Shown here in pieces: positions 6,001-15,000 of a DNA stretch of 32,509 bases. Source of the DNA: Verrucomicrobiota bacterium (GTDB lineage Bacteria; Verrucomicrobiota; Verrucomicrobiia; Limisphaerales; CANJXF01); the NCBI GenBank assembly GCA_038214755.1, contig JBBQRQ010000056.1, positions 1-32,509 on the forward strand, read 5' to 3'. A program made the position numbers. How positions within the stretch are numbered: the stretch's first letter is position 1; each line of letters opens with the position of its first letter.

Positions 6001-9000
6001 GCCTTCGTGAAATTGTCCGCCGTCGGAACGAACGCAACCGAACGTCCCGCTCGTCCACGGTTTGCCCGTCGTGCCGACAAAATATTTTTCTTGAGCGCCG
6101 GGGTAAAACAAGGCGCGATTTGCGGTGGGCAGGTGAAATGTTTCCGCCGCGAGGAACTGCGTGAGTCCGAGGGAAAAAGTTAAAAAAAGTTTGCGTATCA
6201 CAAACCGAGTAAGTTTTTCTTTCGCAGTTTGTCGGAAGTATTATTGAGTCCGCGAACGATGCGAATCGCTTCTTCACGCGTGGCGTCAGGAGTGAAGGTG
6301 AAGACGCCATCGCTGATGCGCCGCAAAATTATGGGCGCGGCGAGCCAACGCCGGTCGGTTGCTTCCGTCATGATCGCGAAACGTTTTCCTTTGTTGGACG
6401 CGCTGACTGTGTCCAACACAAATGTCCCGTGATCATCGAATTGAATTTGAATAGAAAATCCGCCGACGTTATCCACCAACATCGCTTTGATCACATCGCG
6501 TTCATCGAGAAACGAATCCTTGATCACGTTGACCAGAACGGGCGCAGCGCGAAAAATCGGCACTGGCTCGGCGCGGCCTGTCGTGTCCCCGGCCGCTTCG
6601 AGATGAAAGCGGATGGTGGTTAATTCTTTTTTTTGTTTGCGCGATTCCGCCGCTTCCCGTTTTTCTTGAGCGGACTGGCATCCAGCGAAAAGCAAAGCCG
6701 CGAGCAAATAGGTATTGAAGGTGACCAGACGAATCTTCATATTCCGATAAACAAATTAATCACTCGGAAATATAAAGACACTCTATGGGACAGCAATCCA
6801 ACAAAGTTCAAAAACGTTCACGCCGCAAAGCCTACCTGAAACGAAAAAGCGAAACGGTGAAAAGCAAGACCACAAAGAAAGCGACCTGACAGCGGAGATT
6901 CCGGTGGATTTTTCTTGGTGGAAAATCGACGCGCAAATTTTTCAATACGAAATCCGAATCCCCGAAATCCGAAAGAAATCCGAAATCCGAATTCGGAAAA
7001 CGATTTCCCGCAATGGCAAAGACAAGCGCTTTCGCCACACGCACAGTTCCACGACATTTTCGACCTTCGGGTTTCGGATTTCTTTCGGATTTCGGATTTC
7101 GGATTTTAATCATCACGCTCTGCGAATAAATTTCGCAGCAATCCAACCCGCCAAAACAACTCCGGAAAGAATCAGCCAGCCATAACGTTCGTTGCCGTAG
7201 AGAAGCGGGAAATGATTGCTAATCATAATAAACACAACGGGCACCGCCATGAAAGTGTTGTGGCGTGAAGCATTTTTGGCGCGGCGAGCTTCGTCTTGAT
7301 TCGGAGTTTTTCCCTCCTTGAGCGCGGCGACCATGCGGCGTTGCGCGGGTAGAATTCGCATCCAGACATTCGCGACCATAATCGTGCCGAACATCGCGCC
7401 AAGTTGCAGATACGCGGCGCGGCCACTGAAATAGCGATGGAGAAACCAGTTGAGCGCGAGAATCAAAATGAAGGCGACAATGGGAAAAGCGATTTCATTT
7501 CTGACCAATTTACCGAGAACCAGATCGTAAATAAGCCAACCGCCGATGAGAAGTCCGAGACTAAGGCCGATGGCGGCGTGATTGGAAATGGGCGATTCCT
7601 CGACGCTGATCATCAAGCCGCCCATATAATAAACCACGCCGAACAACAGGAATCCGCTGAGCCACGTCAGCGCCGCTTCCCAGCGAAACCAGTGCAGAAG
7701 TTTCGGCATGACTTGGGGGACTTTCTGTTTTTCCACACGATAAAATCCGCCGCTGTGAACCATCCACACTGGTTCGCCGGCAGTGTCATTTTTTTCCAGT
7801 TCCGCGAAACGCCCATCGAGCCAGGTAAAAAAATAAGTCGTGCCGACCCACATGATTCCAGCGAAGACGTGGACCCAGCGCAGAATGGCGTCGAGCCAGG
7901 TGGATATTTCAGCGTTCATTGATTTGGGCGAATTGCGAACTGCCGAAAAAACTGAACAGCGTTTGCGCGTTCGTTCAAGATTTAATTCCGCGACGGTAGC
8001 CGCGGAGGTGAGGAAGCGGATTCTTTATCGAAGCGTAATCCGCCTCCTCACGTCGGCGGCTACAAAATATTCATCCGAGCGCAGCCAGAGCAGTTTCGAC
8101 GTGCTGTTTTTTCGCCTGCCAATCCGTCAACCGCTTTTGATGTTCTTCCAAAACGGCGGGCGGAACTTTTTGAGTGAACGCGGGGTTGTTTAATTTCTGT
8201 TCGACCTTCACGATTTCGGCGTTGTTTTTTTCCAGTTCTTTTTTCAGACGGACTTTTTCGGCTTCGACATCAATCAAGCCTTCGAGGGGTAAAAACAATT
8301 CTCCGAGGGGCGAAAGCGCCGAAGGCGTTCCTTTCGTCGCCGTGAAAGTGGGATTCACTTCGAGCGATTCCGCGTTGAGCAGGATTTTCAAAACTTCGGC
8401 GTCGTGTGATTTGAAATCACGCGACGGTTTGAAAATAAATTTGACGCGTTTGCTGGAAGGAATGTTTCCTTCGCGCTGAAGGTTGCGCCCGTGAGTGACG
8501 AGTTCGTATTTCGCATCGACCAATCGCGCGTCGCTTTCATTGAGGCGGTAGTGGGATTTGAAATCGTCGTCGAAGGGTTTCGGCCACGGCGCGAACATGA
8601 TCGAATCGCCGCCCTGCCCTTTCGGCAAATCGCGATTGAAATTCATGCCGTGCCACAGTTCCTCAGTGATGAACGGAATGAACGGATGAAAAAGCCGCAG
8701 CGTGTTCGAGAGAATAAAATCCATCACGGCCAGCGTGTTGATTTTTTGAGTCGTTGAATCGTTGACTGGTTGAATCGTTGAACCGGCTTCCGATTTAACG
8801 TTTTCACGTTTTAACGATTCAACATTGTGTGACAACACCGCTTTGCTCGCTTCGATATACCAATCGCAATACTCGCTCCAAAAGAAACGGTAAAGCGCGG
8901 TGGTGGCTTCGCTGAATTTGTATTCGGCCAGTGCGCCGGAAACTTCGCGAATGGCTTGATCGAGTTTCAGCAAAATCCATTGGTCGTCGCCGGTGAGAAG

Positions 9001-12000: not shown

Positions 12001-15000
12001 GCCGGGGAGCCAGAGAACTTCCTTGCCGTCCATGCGCGCTTTGCGACTGAGAATGTCCTGGATGGTGTTGTTGAGGACATGGCCCATGTGGAGCATGCCA
12101 GTGACATTCGGCGGCGGAATGACGATGGAATAGGCGGGGCGTTTTTCACTGACGCGCGTTGGATCGGCGACAAAACATTTTTGCTCCAGCCAAAATCGAT
12201 ACCATTTTTCCTCCACGGATTGAGGCTCATAGGCTTTGGGAATTTCAGACATAGTTAAACTGTAGAAACGCGGAGGCGCAGAGAAATCATCTTTGTAAGA
12301 GCGCGTATTCCAAGGAATCCTCCAATGCTTGCAAGCTGGCCTCGATAATATTTTCGCTGACACCCACGGTACCCCATTCATTTTTGCCATCGGTAGATTC
12401 TATCAGAACACGGGTCCTGGCAGCCGTGCCGGGACTGGTCAAAGAAAACAGATCGTCGAGTGCTGGTTTTAGAAGGTCATTTCTTTCGCCAAGTATCCGC
12501 CGCGTTTCCCTCACTCCTGATTGGAAGGAATCACCTAAAATTCGAACTTTATAATCGGTGAGTCGAATTTTTTTGAGTTGAGGGAAGGACTTAACTAAGG
12601 CGGCCCGCAGAGCGGCGTCTAAAGCGTTCACTGGCCCCTGACCTTCAGCGACTTCGTCATGAACCACTTTTCCTACGCGCACACAGACGCTCGCGGCGCA
12701 GACAGACTGTTTAGCATCGCGCCGCATCGAAACGTGATACTTCTCTACCGTGAAGAATAGTTCCGGATTGTGATCCAATATACCGCGAATCAATAACGCC
12801 ATCGAAGCCTCGGCTGCCTCATATTCATACCCGTCGTGCTCACGTTGTTTGATGGTGCTGAGAATTTGTTTCAGTTCCGGAGTCTCGTTCGTGATTTTGA
12901 AACCCAGTTCCTGCGCCTTCATCACGATGTTGCTGCGGCCCGACAAATCGCTGACCAAGACGGTGCGTTCGTTTCCAACTAACTCCGGTTCGATGTGCTC
13001 ATAGCTGGCGGAAAGTTTTTGCACCGCATTTACGTGGGTTCCTCCCTTGTGCGAAAATGCGGCCGAACCCACCCACGGCAATCGCGGATTGTGCCGGATG
13101 TTGGCAATCTCATCGACGAATTGGGAAAGCTCTTTCAATCGGCGCAATGACGATATTGGCACGCAACTTTTTTTTAACTTCAGCGTCACGCAGGGAATCA
13201 CGCTGGTCAAATTGCAATTGCCCGTGCGCTCGCCGTAGCCATTGATTGTTCCTTGCACATGGACCGCGCCAGCGTCCAGCGCCGCCAACGCGTTAGCCAC
13301 ACCCAGACCAATGTCGTCGTGAGTGTGGATACCGATTTTACAATTTAATTGACTCCTGGCGAATGCGGTGATGTTCGCAATTTCCTTGGGCAAACAGCCG
13401 CCGTTGGTATCGCACAGCACGACAAGATCCGCCCCCGCTTTTTCCGCCGCCTGCCATGTGGCCAAAGCGTATTCCGGATCAAGTTTATATCCGTCGAAAC
13501 AATGTTCCGCGTCGTAGATGACAAACTTCCCGTGGTCTTTCACGAACCGAACCGTGTCGCTAATCATCGCGAGATTTTCTTCCGGCGTACAGCGCAGAAC
13601 TTCCTTTACGTGCAACATGGAAGTCTTGCCATAGATCGTCACCACAGGCGTGGCCGCGTCGATGAGCAAACGAACTTGATCATCCTTCTTCACCGAAATG
13701 TTTTTGCGTCGAGTGGAACCGAACGCCGCCAGCCGCGCGTTTTTGAATTTTCTTTTTTTCGCCTGGGCAAAAAATTCAATGTCTTTCGGATTCGATCCCG
13801 GCCAGCCGCCTTCAATGTAATGAACGCCAAAAGAATCTAATTTTTCGGCGATGCGAAGCTTGTCCGCCACCGAAAAATTCACGCCTTCACCCTGACTGCC
13901 GTCGCGCAAGGTCGTGTCGTAGATTTCAACTTCAGGTTTCATTTCTTCGCCGTGGCGGAACGAAATCTCTACGACACGAATCCCGGATTGCAAAGCCCAA
14001 AGTCCTCCACACCAAGCGCTGAGTCGCACCTCGCCATCGGCACCGTAGCGCAGGTTTCTAACCGGCAGCGCTTAAAACATTCAAGCATCTGCGGACCGGA
14101 AATCCATGATCCGGCAGATTAAGAAATCTGTGCTCCGAGGCTGGCGTATGCCGACAGAATGTCGGTAGCACTCTTCTGCGCATCACCAACGCGGCGTCAA
14201 CTTCATGTGGACTTGTTCAGGCCGCGCGTTGGGCGATGGTTCCCAATCCAACGCGCAATCCACCGCGCGGCGCATCTGGGCGAACCACCATTGCGCGCGG
14301 CTCAACCGGCGTTGGCGTTGATTGTTCACAGCGCAGCGAATCGTTCCGTTCAATCCGAGTTCCATTTGTTCTTTATTCATGCGCCAAGATTATTCGCATC
14401 GGTCAGACAAAGACTGTCTAAGCGGGAGAAAGTTTTGAGGAATTCAAAAAAATTTCGCTTCACAGAAAAGTCGGGTTGATCGTTCATACTGTCGGAAACA
14501 TTTCTTGATGCTCATCGCCTTCAACAAACCCTTCGGCGTCATCTCGCAATTTTCCGACGACGGGTCGGGAAATCGCACGCTCGCTGAATTCGGTTTTCCG
14601 AAAAATGTTTATTCTCTAGGACGTCTGGATGCAGATTCGGAGGGGTTGCTTCTACTAACCGACGAAACAGAGTTGAACGGAAAATTGCTGAACCCTATTC
14701 ACCGCCATCCACGAATTTACTGGGCGCAGGTGGAACGAATCCCCACCGCCAATTCACTCCAAGAATTTGCAGAGGGTGTGGTCGTGCAAAATCGTAAATC
14801 TCTTCCGTGCCGCGCTTGGATTCTTGACCCGCAACCGAACATTCCGCCGCGCGATCCACCGATTCGTTTTCGGAAATCTGTTCAGGAATGCTGGATTGGT
14901 TTGGAATTGGTCGAGGGGAAAAACCGTCAGGTGCGGCGAATGACCGCTGCCATTGGGCACCCCACACTGCGTTTGTTGCGCGTTCAAATCGGCCACTTGC

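Follow-up and report, generated by a model that had tools for sequence, protein, structure and literature searches.

The only valyl-tRNA synthetase (ValRS) of the genome appears, from its sequence, to be a complete and working enzyme that holds one LPD3 cassette of about 208 aa in each of its CP2 and CP3 subdomains, and valS genes of Verrucomicrobiota evidently exchange such cassettes as discrete units, each delimited by the nearly invariant IPVWY and DPDVLDTW motifs. We hold the anatomy and the exchange, taken jointly, with high confidence. In our preferred reading, to which as a whole we give a probability of about 0.55, the cassette is a selectively maintained, RNA-directed accessory unit that moves between valS genes. 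An RNase-toxin-like domain swapped among otherwise nearly identical synthetase genes is unusual in an essential translation enzyme. New here are the location of the modules in CP2 and CP3, the matches to BECR toxins, the set of conserved residues, the uncoupling of cassette and core, and the ectopic copy in CP2.

The window, by which we denote the whole stretch of 32,509 nucleotides that was analysed, comes from a sediment bacterium. It carries the valS coding sequence on the minus strand at 8071..12252 (1393 aa and the stop codon), and the features of this gene given below lie on the same strand. The corresponding open reading frame covers 8071-12390 as a single unbroken frame without stop codons, and a start at 12252 gives the 1393 aa that agree with the N-termini of homologues. 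The protein scores 1056.5 bits against the NCBIfam valS model (cut-off 704), and on no other contig of this genome does valS exceed that cut-off. Pfam assigns tRNA-synt_1 in three stretches (429.8 bits), an anticodon-binding domain (Anticodon_1, 112.1 bits; aa 1090-1271, 8440..8985), a C-terminal coiled-coil tRNA-binding arm (Val_tRNA-synt_C, 61.1 bits; aa 1328-1393, 8074..8271) and LPD3 (PF18798) in two stretches (95.7 bits, compared to a cut-off of 27). The initial annotation of a sole ValRS of 1393 aa with two LPD3 modules was confirmed. Both the HIGH signature (HMGH, aa 55-58, 12079..12090, read directly from the sequence) and the KMSKS signature (KMSKT, aa 983-987, 9292..9306) are intact.

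Although the same annotation correctly described the inserts, it placed them within the catalytic domain; they lie in the connective-peptide subdomains CP2 and CP3 and not in the Rossmann core. Cassette 1 (aa 446-653, 208 aa, 10294..10917, Pfam LPD3 core at 10492-10821) sits within the CP2 helical hairpin and is followed by the second CP2 helix and the CP2-CP3 linker with its WCISRQ motif (aa 663-695, 10168..10266). Cassette 2 (aa 696-904, 209 aa, 9541..10167, LPD3 core at 9742-10080) sits in CP3, with IPVWY before it and DPDVLDTW after it, and the DVLDTW motif (9520..9537) is its downstream anchor, at which the catalytic fold resumes with its second half. Scanned singly, the inserts reach 58.4 and 45.5 bits against LPD3; aligned to each other over 208 residues, they share 45.2% identity. 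LPD3 was found nowhere else in this genome (97% complete) and in none of 14 control genomes. The two modules flank, one on each side, the linker that forms the lining of the pocket for the tRNA 3' end, by equivalence to the IleRS linker described in passages of PMC7955072 and PMC7191050. According to passages of the latter, CP3 is structurally variable in IleRS, with a topology that differs by organism and with optional zinc binding. In genus-mates the same CP3 site is occupied by unrelated inserts of 85-100 aa, which suggests that the site may simply tolerate anything. Since the cassettes are absent from close relatives, they are optional for ValRS.

Exchange of cassettes was assessed with ValRS proteins that all come from metagenome assemblies, so some of the mosaics are possibly co-assembly chimeras; P0009 and P0067, the mosaic pair described here, were each found on 2-3 contigs. 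Among 72 ValRS with a CP3 cassette (2556 pairs), the identity of the cores was hardly related to that of the cassettes (Pearson r 0.11, Spearman -0.04), and of the 74 pairs whose cores share 90% identity or more, 53 have cassettes less than 60% identical. On the core tree the cassette-clade label changes 32 times, compared to 35-41 among the shuffles listed and a possible minimum of 5, and near-identical cores hold cassettes of different deep clades. P0009 and P0067 share 95-100% identity in their cores but 30-46% in their cassettes, with the borders located precisely at the IPVWY and DPDVLDTW motifs; P0028 and P0107, whose cores are nearly identical, differ in that one has the cassette and the other cleanly lacks it. 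The same measure gave r 0.30 for the LeuRS insert against its host enzyme and r 0.86 for the MutS insert, which served as a control of the method. The earlier suggestion of spreading inserts thus stands for ValRS and LeuRS but not for MutS, whose insert tracks its host.

Essentially all ValRS modules group in a single clade specific to ValRS (114 ValRS rows within a clade of 120), and the cassettes belong to a branch, peculiar to ValRS, of LPD3, a family of phage polyvalent proteins. The inserts had been assigned to domain families of phage and plasmid polyvalent proteins, and we agree. A single clade that moves with valS flanks, however, points to host-gene recombination and away from repeated phage invasion or self-mobility. 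We infer from the protein mosaics that the cassettes would be exchanged by homologous recombination through valS flanks that are unusually conserved in DNA; in our reading it is neither self-mobile nor an old vertically inherited domain. The CP2-CP3 linker DNA is 89-94% identical to five of six genus-mate loci and 80% to the sixth, and the 284 nt from DVLDTW onward are 87-95% identical to genus-mate DNA (for the flanks together, 87-95% in 10 of 11 alignments and 80% for L016). The first 600 nt of valS show 81-83% identity to genus-mates, and the window cassettes have no DNA match in these genus-mates. Two metagenome runs contain contigs of other organisms that align to the flanks but leave the cassettes uncovered. 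Cassette 1 is a CP3-type cassette that was copied, with CP3 flanks, ectopically into CP2. It starts with IPVWH and ends with a CP3-end motif, both copies of CP3 flanks, and it clusters with the cassettes that P0002 and P0003 carry in CP3 (98% support). A single clade for all 32 CP2-located copies was rejected (p-AU 0.014), and the two cassettes of the window differ in their nearest relatives.

Structure prediction gave cassette 2 a mean pLDDT of 80.9, with means of 10-residue blocks of at least 84 across residues 1-120 and a low-confidence tail of about 40 aa after the fold; this tail is predicted to be a linker that brings the chain back to the insertion point. The best match of the LPD3 model among 48,161 solved chains is the CdiA-CT toxin 6cp9 with Z 6.8 (91 aa, 2.9 Å), a middling value within the range that the tool calls common among unrelated models. 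The second and third are the CdiA-CT toxin 7m5f (Z 6.4) and BrnT (Z 5.9), and, as judged from entry titles, eight of the ten best matches belong to the RelE, colicin D or CdiA types of RNase toxin. Foldseek found no PDB match at E <= 0.001 for the LPD3 module, just weak NTF2- or cystatin-like rows. Among the predicted structures of BFVD the matches are phage LPD3 proteins, 14 of them at E <= 0.001. With Z values of at most 6.8, which are middling, the cassette is predicted to adopt an alpha+beta fold that resembles the BECR fold of RNase toxins. The LeuRS PBECR3 model yields the same matches (BrnT 6.6, 7vd7 6.2, 7m5f 5.1, 6cp9 4.5). The view that the inserts are one BECR-fold family draws support from these shared toxin matches in a similar Z range but none from the profile-profile comparison of ValRS-LPD3 with LeuRS-PBECR3 (E 0.1, probability 0.6%). 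Passages of PMC9086364 describe 6cp9 as a tRNase that cleaves the acceptor stem of uncharged tRNA; LPD3 is absent from the probably enzymatic LPDs that its defining authors name in passages of PMC5512222.

Residue conservation was counted over 110 ValRS copies and compared to 161-169 polyvalent-protein copies. In ValRS, R11 (100%), N30 (100%), H46 (97%), H77 (99%), K108 (98%), D118 (100%) and H119 (95%) are nearly invariant, so that the His/His/Lys/Asp-His set is present in 95-100% of the modules, although cassette clades are just 25-45% identical overall. N30, H88, E109 and Y117-D118-H119 are common to the polyvalent copies, whereas four near-invariant residues of the ValRS copies lie far above their conservation in phage copies. 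Both cassettes of the window retain all conserved residues of the two sets. Cassette 1 shares 79% identity with the CP3 cassette of P0002, although between the two enzyme cores identity is only 74%.

As initially annotated, LeuRS (C27:40010-43540, 1176 aa) carries PBECR3 at 652-753 (33.6 bits, cut-off 30). MutS (C121:5028-8228, 1066 aa) had been reported below the PBECR1 cut-off of 27.6; this holds for the whole protein (23.5 bits) but not for the six-frame genome search (28.4 bits). The patchy distribution was reproduced, with LPD3 in 38 and PBECR3 in 24 of 401 sampled genomes of the order and each in one of eight genus-mates (for LPD3, two of nine genus genomes when that of the window is counted). 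Nine genomes, which represent 8 families, combine LPD3-ValRS with PBECR3-LeuRS, compared to an expectation of 2.3, and only G000 of the 401 has such domains in ValRS, LeuRS and MutS all together. This genome holds no further LPD3, PBECR3 or PBECR1-type copy, and in the neighbourhood of valS, where the adjoining genes are of ordinary metabolism, no immunity-like partner was found.

In the mechanism that we propose, selection would retain the module for a biochemical function that the module itself provides, and the BECR-like fold and the His/His/Lys/Asp-His set make RNA binding or cutting the most likely prediction for it. Its location beside the CCA pocket suggests the acceptor end of the ValRS-held tRNA as a likely substrate. 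Tethering to ValRS may be comparable to the way in which some BECR CDI toxins require EF-Tu, a host factor that binds tRNA, in order to act as tRNases, as described in passages of PMC9086364. Allele turnover favours a conflict with phages or tRNA-targeting toxins over a routine role in aminoacylation, and we put forward a function that is both RNA-directed and conflict-related tentatively. One would expect harm from an active tRNase this close to the CCA pocket in an essential enzyme, which speaks against the RNase reading.

It is unlikely that the cassette is a tolerated passenger without function for the cell, in loops of CP2 and CP3 that take almost any insert. Such a passenger would persist and spread because the ultra-conserved flanking motifs permit homologous recombination and make clean deletion rare, which is the logic of inteins minus the homing enzyme. 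The P0028/P0107 pair, the small share of carriers in the order and the genus, the unrelated inserts at the same site in genus-mates and the absence of partner genes nearby are what this would predict, as is P0105, which retains only a tail remnant and thus suggests decay by deletion. However, seven polar residues conserved at 95-100% across such divergent clades, four of them far more conserved in ValRS than in phage copies, and some cassettes that exceed the core in conservation argue for selection. Moreover, domain scans of ValRS and the inserts found no homing endonuclease, intein or HINT domain, and the excess of co-occurrence with PBECR3-LeuRS also speaks against a passenger. We consider it quite improbable that the module is a built-in decoy or sensor, mimicking a phage-delivered LPD3/BECR effector or its target site in order to absorb a phage or toxin factor or to signal attack on ValRS or tRNAVal. 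The family shared with injected phage polyvalent proteins, an allele turnover like that of arms-race loci and the three nucleic-acid enzymes of G000 with such domains fit this idea, but no interacting partner, signalling output or phage link is in evidence, the genome has no other copy of these domain types, and a pure decoy would not need the conserved catalytic-looking residues.

The fallback of the initial annotation, an old accessory tRNA-binding domain of Verrucomicrobial ValRS that was inherited vertically and lost many times, has very little probability left. The nearly single clade of ValRS copies, the P0105 remnant and the MutS insert, which does behave so, agree with it. For ValRS it is contradicted by the core-cassette r of 0.11, by cassette types that are scattered almost at random over the core tree, by near-identical cores with cassettes of different deep clades, and by the differing nearest relatives of the two window cassettes. 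The chance that an assembly or gene-calling artefact, such as a chimeric contig or two genes taken as one, produced the gene is negligible. The genome is indeed a metagenome-derived assembly of 175 contigs; the frame is nevertheless continuous and stop-free, the same architecture is present in more than 100 independent protein clusters, and error-free contigs of run X1 cover the gene from end to end and overlap one another at each junction, although X1 is possibly the source sample and its tiling therefore not independent.

The selectively maintained, exchangeable cassette that we prefer resembles several known systems in part. Inteins are in-frame insertions between the most conserved motifs of essential enzymes and are patchily distributed. 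The cassette is likewise placed in frame between the most conserved motifs of ValRS and patchily distributed, but it has another fold, lacks a HINT or endonuclease domain and conserved splice-junction residues, and nothing suggests that it is spliced out. Polymorphic toxins (CdiA, Rhs) and mosaic genes combine a conserved body with a variable module and sharp borders at conserved motifs, to which the cassette alleles of deep clades on near-identical ValRS backgrounds are similar; here, however, the module is internal and not C-terminal, the body is a housekeeping enzyme and no linked immunity gene travels with the cassette. BECR tRNase toxins (CdiA-CT Kp342 6cp9, CdiA-CT 7m5f, BrnT, RelE, colicin D) are the best structural matches and share several helices followed by a four-stranded antiparallel sheet, a conserved His on a helix ahead of the sheet and conserved positions in the final strand, although Z is just 4.5-6.8, sequence identity is 5-12%, and the cassettes have no immunity gene, secretion or delivery part. 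Class Ia aminoacyl-tRNA synthetases show lineage-specific variation in CP2 and CP3 and have appended domains, and CP2 and CP3 are precisely where the present inserts lie, but the known variants are small, lineage-fixed elaborations, whereas here a conflict-type domain of about 208 aa is present or absent and swapped between near-identical enzymes. The phage polyvalent LPD3 and PBECR domains (Iyer et al. 2017, PMC5512222, in the passages matched, where tRNA synthetases occur zero times) are close in that both cassettes exceed the Pfam cut-off, share the family-wide N30, H88, E109 and Y-D-H, and match phage LPD3 proteins in BFVD. There the host is an injected multidomain effector; here it is an essential chromosomal enzyme, the module is nested inside another domain with a return linker, and the ValRS copies form their own clade with four extra near-invariant residues.

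The valS gene lies on the reverse strand of the window as a single uninterrupted open frame (8071-12390). Translation from the ATG at 12252, which is the start of its homologues, gives 1393 aa with an N-terminus in agreement with those of relatives. Upstream of this start the frame stays open for another 46 codons, as far as an ATG at 12390, and overlaps the end of a LeuA-like gene (12287-14029). The product scored 1056.5 bits against NF004349, the NCBIfam valS model (cut-off 704), and 915 bits against TIGR00422 (cut-off 612.1). It carries the signatures HMGH (aa 55-58) and KMSKT (aa 983-987), and both Anticodon_1 and Val_tRNA-synt_C, the C-terminal coiled coil, were found by Pfam. 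Judged by its sequence, the gene encodes a complete valine-tRNA ligase (class Ia). Since it is the only valS above the family cut-off in a genome that is 97% complete, its aminoacylation and editing functions are presumably active. Short low-complexity insertions occur in the editing and anticodon-binding domains (window 11500-11620 and 8700-9130; aa ~213-250, ~1045-1075 and ~1140-1175), where the length of relatives varies too. The LeuA-like synthase gene lies upstream and a gene for a Urate_ox_N-family (PF06181) protein downstream; an MFS transporter, an M23 peptidase, a pseudouridine synthase, a PIN-PhoH protein and a gamma-glutamyltranspeptidase are encoded nearby, and no mobile-element or defence gene was found among the genes neighbouring valS. 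The PIN-PhoH protein, a 432-aa fusion of a PIN domain and a PhoH-like ATPase (window 16836-18134, forward strand), is encoded 4.6 kb from valS; this fusion is a common architecture, and nothing ties it to the inserts described below.

The initial annotation had placed two LPD3 (PF18798) inserts in this sole ValRS, and this was borne out. Pfam matched LPD3 twice in the protein; analyzed alone, cassette 2 scored 58.4 bits and cassette 1 45.5 bits, against a gathering threshold of 27. No further LPD3 was found in the genome, and none of 14 control genomes had a match. Cassette 1 spans window 10294-10917 (reverse strand, aa 446-653) and cassette 2 spans 9541-10167 (reverse strand, aa 696-904). The unit is ~208 aa, and the two copies are 45.2% identical. 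A single native segment (aa 663-695), which holds the WCISRQ motif, separates them and, by homology with IleRS, probably comprises the second CP2 helix and the CP2-CP3 linker. In the excerpts consulted, that linker is described for IleRS as part of the tRNA 3'-end pocket (PMC7955072), CP2 as a helical hairpin, and CP3 as a small subdomain whose topology varies among organisms (PMC7191050). Going by this homology and these passages, cassette 1 would sit at the CP2 tip and cassette 2 would replace or fill CP3, and the anchor points of both would be no more than a few tens of residues away from the tRNA-end pocket.

We modelled cassette 2 with AlphaFold, using 44 homologues as input. The model had a mean pLDDT of 80.9 and a pTM of 0.73, with 10-residue block means of at least 84 over residues 1-120. 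The order of its elements is helix, hairpin, three helices and a four-stranded antiparallel meander; a helix at residues 61-70 precedes strands at 72-83, 86-98, 101-112 and 117-126, and the layout of the BECR core (a helix, then a four- or five-stranded antiparallel sheet) is present. A tail of ~40 residues follows, 23 of them at low confidence; its positions are mostly gaps in polyvalent copies, and we infer that it is a linker bringing the chain back to the insertion point. Foldseek returned no match of the model to the PDB at E <= 0.001, and weak rows for NTF2- or cystatin-like folds (TM 0.2-0.26) were not taken as an assignment. A structure search independent of Foldseek, over 48,161 chains, ranked the CdiA-CT of K. 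pneumoniae 342 first (6cp9, Z 6.8, 91 residues, 2.9 A), followed by CdiA-CT 7m5f (Z 6.4) and BrnT (Z 5.9), and YxiD, a Salmonella toxin, RelE, colicin D and MqsR were also in the top ten; Z values of 5.9-6.8 fall in the range that the tool calls 'common' and are weak alone. The LeuRS insert, which is PBECR3 by Pfam threshold, was modelled as a yardstick (pLDDT 84.5). It has the same order of elements and matched BrnT (Z 6.6), 7vd7 (6.2), 7m5f (5.1), NC101 CdiA-CT (5.0), 6cp9 (4.5) and colicin D (4.3). Because it returns the same proteins at the same level, the LPD3 model looks as BECR-like as that of an accepted BECR family. An excerpt of PMC9086364 describes 6cp9 as a tRNase, stimulated by EF-Tu/EF-Ts, that cleaves uncharged tRNA in the acceptor stem. 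Matches in BFVD at E <= 0.001 numbered 14; these were phage polyvalent proteins, many with the annotation LPD3.

Alignment of the ValRS-LPD3 and LeuRS-PBECR3 profiles with hhalign gave E 0.1 and a probability of 0.6%, that is, no demonstrable sequence relation. The conserved motifs of the two profiles align in the same order, which was not taken as evidence of homology. The PBECR families, as described in the part of Iyer et al. (2017) consulted, have a His on their N-terminal helix as well as a C-terminal Thr or Ser. In the ValRS modules a helix carries His46, but the residue on the last strand is His119 instead of Thr/Ser, and with this residue and the hhalign result they fall outside PBECR. 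Residue conservation was compared between 110 ValRS copies and 161-169 copies from polyvalent proteins. N30, H88, E109 and Y117-D118-H119 are kept in both groups (65-95% of the polyvalent copies), and the ValRS copies also keep R11 (100%), H46 (97%), H77 (99%) and K108 (98%), which are variable in phage copies. All of these residues are present in both window cassettes. Since the cassette clades are only 25-45% identical overall, the polar cluster appears to be under strong purifying selection, as expected for a catalytic or phosphate-binding site.

The host of LPD3 in the window is a chromosomal valS among ordinary genes, unlike the large phage and plasmid polyvalent proteins of which the domain is a module elsewhere. 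A full scan of 1.84 billion representative proteins returned 223 relatives at E <= 0.001. Pfam found LPD3 in 51 of 52 examined among the 150 relatives listed; two of the 51 were ValRS fragments, one was an RfaE-domain-II-like adenylyltransferase with a C-terminal LPD3, and the rest had a polyvalent-protein architecture or LPD3 alone. Partner domains include MuF, portal, ART-PolyVal, PBECR2/3, ddrB-ParB, RadC and LPD38, and 10 additional large proteins gave the same polyvalent picture. The adenylyltransferase (P0127, a metagenome protein of 399 aa) scored 167 bits as heptose-1-phosphate adenylyltransferase, below the cut-off of 181.5. Its LPD3 belongs to the ValRS clade, with 41% identity, tail included, and it is probably a further HIGH-superfamily enzyme bearing the module. 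In a FastTree of 275 LPD3 domains, which has few columns and low resolution, all 114 ValRS-derived rows fall inside one clade of 120, with six other proteins nested there. Such a topology agrees with a single capture, or a few, and later diversification inside valS.

With the insert region as query, 120 proteins were listed, 102 with PF18798 and 18 without it. Their source names are Verrucomicrobiota (Limisphaerales, Chthoniobacterales, Verrucomicrobiae) and one 'Acidobacteria' MAG. Judged from landmark spacing in 121 ValRS including that of the window, the module is at CP3 only in 71, at CP2 only in 25, at both in seven and at neither in 18; it is dispensable for ValRS. LPD3 was detected in 38 of 401 sampled genomes of the order (29 of 166 genera; the unpublished genome G289 included), mostly in ValRS-sized frames, and in 1 of 8 genus members besides the window's genome. 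A phylum-wide sample had it in 53 of 401 genomes; there the frames were mostly 2000-4600 aa long, as is usual for polyvalent proteins.

The main new result is that cassettes move between valS genes. For the 72 ValRS with a CP3 cassette (2556 pairs), we compared the identity of the enzyme core, calculated from 535 well-filled columns, with the identity of the cassette, and the two were uncorrelated (Pearson r 0.11, Spearman -0.04). Cores were at least 90% identical in 74 pairs, and in 53 of these the cassettes were less than 60% identical; conversely, 40 of the 113 pairs with cassettes at least 75% identical had cores below 80%. On the maximum-likelihood tree of the core, the six cassette clades require 32 changes, where the minimum possible is 5, and the ten shuffles of the clade labels that were inspected, out of 200, required 35-41. 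Presence of a CP3 cassette requires 25 changes on this tree, and presence of a CP2 cassette 18. The same analysis gave r 0.30 for LeuRS (67 proteins, 2211 pairs) and r 0.86 for MutS (20 proteins, 190 pairs), and from the latter value the method does detect co-inheritance where it is present. One alternative is vertical inheritance with repeated loss. This fits the MutS insert, which by this comparison is inherited with its host, and is contradicted for ValRS and LeuRS.

In the clearest pair of metagenome ValRS (P0009/P0067), both sides are 95-100% identical and the cassettes 30-46%, with the switch exactly after IPVWY and before the motif preceding DPDVLDTW. P0016/P0075, P0011/P0047 and P0004/P0010 are similar cases, P0028/P0107 and P0087/P0111 differ by presence or absence of the cassette, and in P0105 a deletion has left just the last strand and the tail as a scar. 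Within the window's genus, where cores are 74-86% identical, one species carries just a CP2-type cassette, and in four others CP3 contains unrelated inserts of 85-100 aa (loci L007, L008, L010, L011 and L016) with no Pfam domain at E <= 0.1. The 111 nt of CP2-CP3 linker DNA is 89-94% identical to five of six genus-mate loci and 80% identical to the sixth, and the 284 nt downstream of cassette 2 is 87-95% identical; for the first 600 nt of valS the value is only 81-83%, and no DNA match to the cassettes was found in the genus-mates. In two metagenome runs, one of them possibly the source sample, the flanks are matched by contigs of other organisms that skip the cassette regions, joining ~9546-9552 to 10153-10156 and ~10215-10224 to 11015-11023. 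The insert regions showed no more than the depth of the organism's own contig in runs X1 and X2, and the stretches lacking coverage in X2 were left out of the evidence. Uncoupled identities, sharp borders, conserved flank DNA and cassette-skipping contigs together suggest exchange by homologous recombination through the flanks.

The valS genes of genus-mates also contain, in frame, a low-complexity unit of ~40 aa (loci L009, L016 and L008/L015, valS of genus-mates G197 and G311; L010 in G108 only resembles it). It is present at up to three places per ValRS (editing domain, CP2 tip and anticodon-binding domain) and resembles a small repeat element that has inserted into coding sequence, like the Rickettsia palindromic elements. 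In the window's own genome there was one borderline match (E 5.6e-4), which we treated as absence.

The two cassettes of the window have different histories. The cassette tree unites 31 CP2-located copies in a single clade (97% support) with four CP3 copies as sisters, and this sister position suggests an old relocation from CP3 to CP2. The CP2 copy of the window departs from this: its place is with the CP3 cassettes of P0002 and P0003 (98%), and it shares 79% identity with that of P0002. At its start it has a copy of IPVW and at its end one of the CP3 end motif, the valS sequences normally found on either side of CP3. A single clade of all 32 CP2-located copies was rejected (log-likelihood 65.8 lower, p-AU 0.014). 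Given this grouping, the flank copies and the rejected clade, a CP3-type cassette with its flanks landed ectopically in the window's valS, from another valS allele or from an earlier allele of its own, and on the evidence of the tree this is a second, independent move from CP3 to CP2. Cassette 2 groups with P0016 and P0018 (98%, 53% identity). The nearest ValRS by core (~89%) are P0098, with a CP2 cassette only, and P0106, with none. Two independent captures from phages were rejected, as both cassettes are inside the ValRS clade and cassette 1 has the CP3 flanks of valS, and so was a tandem duplication of cassette 2, to which cassette 1 is 45% identical as against 79% to P0002.

The other two inserts claimed in the initial annotation are also real. 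The PBECR3 insert of LeuRS (contig C27) scored 33.6 bits (cut-off 30), and the PBECR1-like insert of MutS (contig C121) 23.5 bits as protein and 28.4 bits in a six-frame search (cut-off 27.6). Family-specific HMMs found no further copy of the three insert families among the 25,888 six-frame ORFs of the genome. Both inserts consist of a conserved core and a tail, as in the ValRS cassettes. The MutS insert (aa ~385-605) splits domain III just before the clamp domain IV; PF18809 is carried by 10 of 21 other MutS homologues. Polyvalent proteins P0414-P0418, which are large and carry LPD14 or InPase, are 42-49% identical to it over 53-77% of its length; despite this likeness the MutS insert co-evolves with its host, unlike the synthetase cassettes. 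PBECR3 was present in 76 of 120 LeuRS clusters listed and in 24 of the 401 order genomes, mostly in LeuRS-sized frames, and PBECR1 in 11 of 401 at E <= 0.01 (G289 included). Of the 401, the window's genome alone has all three families; LPD3 and PBECR1 overlap in it and in G182 and G289. LPD3-ValRS and PBECR3-LeuRS co-occur in nine of 401 genomes from eight families, against an expectation of 2.3 (odds ratio 7.2, Fisher p 1e-4); this statistic ignores kinship, and as related genomes are not independent, the co-occurrence is only a hint.

As to function, the module may be kept because it acts on RNA, close to the acceptor end of the ValRS-bound tRNA, and the turnover of alleles may reflect conflict with phages or RNase toxins and not housekeeping needs. 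The near-invariant His, His, Lys and Asp-His favour a candidate cleavage chemistry; a tRNase without control on an essential enzyme speaks instead for binding or for tight regulation. With respect to the metal-independent RNase activity of BECR enzymes, what the modules show is the conserved His/Lys/Asp-His set. A more specific reading is that the cassettes are latent or regulated acceptor-stem tRNases, or tight binders of the tRNA end, carried by ValRS (and by LeuRS with another BECR family) and fed by its own tRNA; together they would form a chromosomal device for defence or counter-defence, directed at phage polyvalent effectors or at toxins that target tRNA, with an arms race driving the exchange of alleles between species. 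We consider this unlikely as it stands, at a probability of roughly 15%. If true, immunity components of a new class would lie hidden in essential enzymes of translation. A tolerated passenger without a function for the cell would explain the patchy distribution, but fails to explain the conserved polar residues. An intein or homing element was rejected, as Pfam found no HINT or homing endonuclease domain, the junction residues vary, and the fold is BECR-like.

As a rule, aminoacyl-tRNA synthetases are regarded as stable markers that are inherited vertically. In this case a domain otherwise seen in effectors injected by phages sits in an essential synthetase, and the cassette behaves like an exchangeable allele whose type is almost independent of the phylogeny of the enzyme. 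The finding stands and is of more interest than a static insertion would be. Should the module act on tRNA, it would tie the RNase folds of conflict systems directly to the charging step of translation, and ValRS can be compared with and without the cassette, which would make it a tractable model. Even a functionless cassette would be DNA that spreads without a mobility gene, in frame between two ultra-conserved motifs of an essential gene. The valS and leuS genes can be mosaic in Verrucomicrobiota, and caution is needed in their use as phylogenetic markers.

We found no literature on LPD3, PBECR or BECR domains inside synthetases. Within the literature searched, LPD3 appears in print only as a domain of unknown function in the consulted part of Iyer et al. 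(2017, PMC5512222), whose supplements may list synthetase architectures; three other matches for 'LPD3' were LPD38 or LPD39. The terms synthetase, tRNA ligase, MutS and LPD do not occur in a 2026 preprint on the classification of BECR, and literature joining synthetase with Verrucomicrobia, BECR, CP2/CP3 or mosaic recombination yielded nothing on the subject. In polymorphic toxin systems cassettes are swapped in a comparable manner. Those systems have an adjacent immunity gene and a delivery domain, whereas here the module is internal to valS and the neighbours are a LeuA-like synthase and a Urate_ox_N-family protein.
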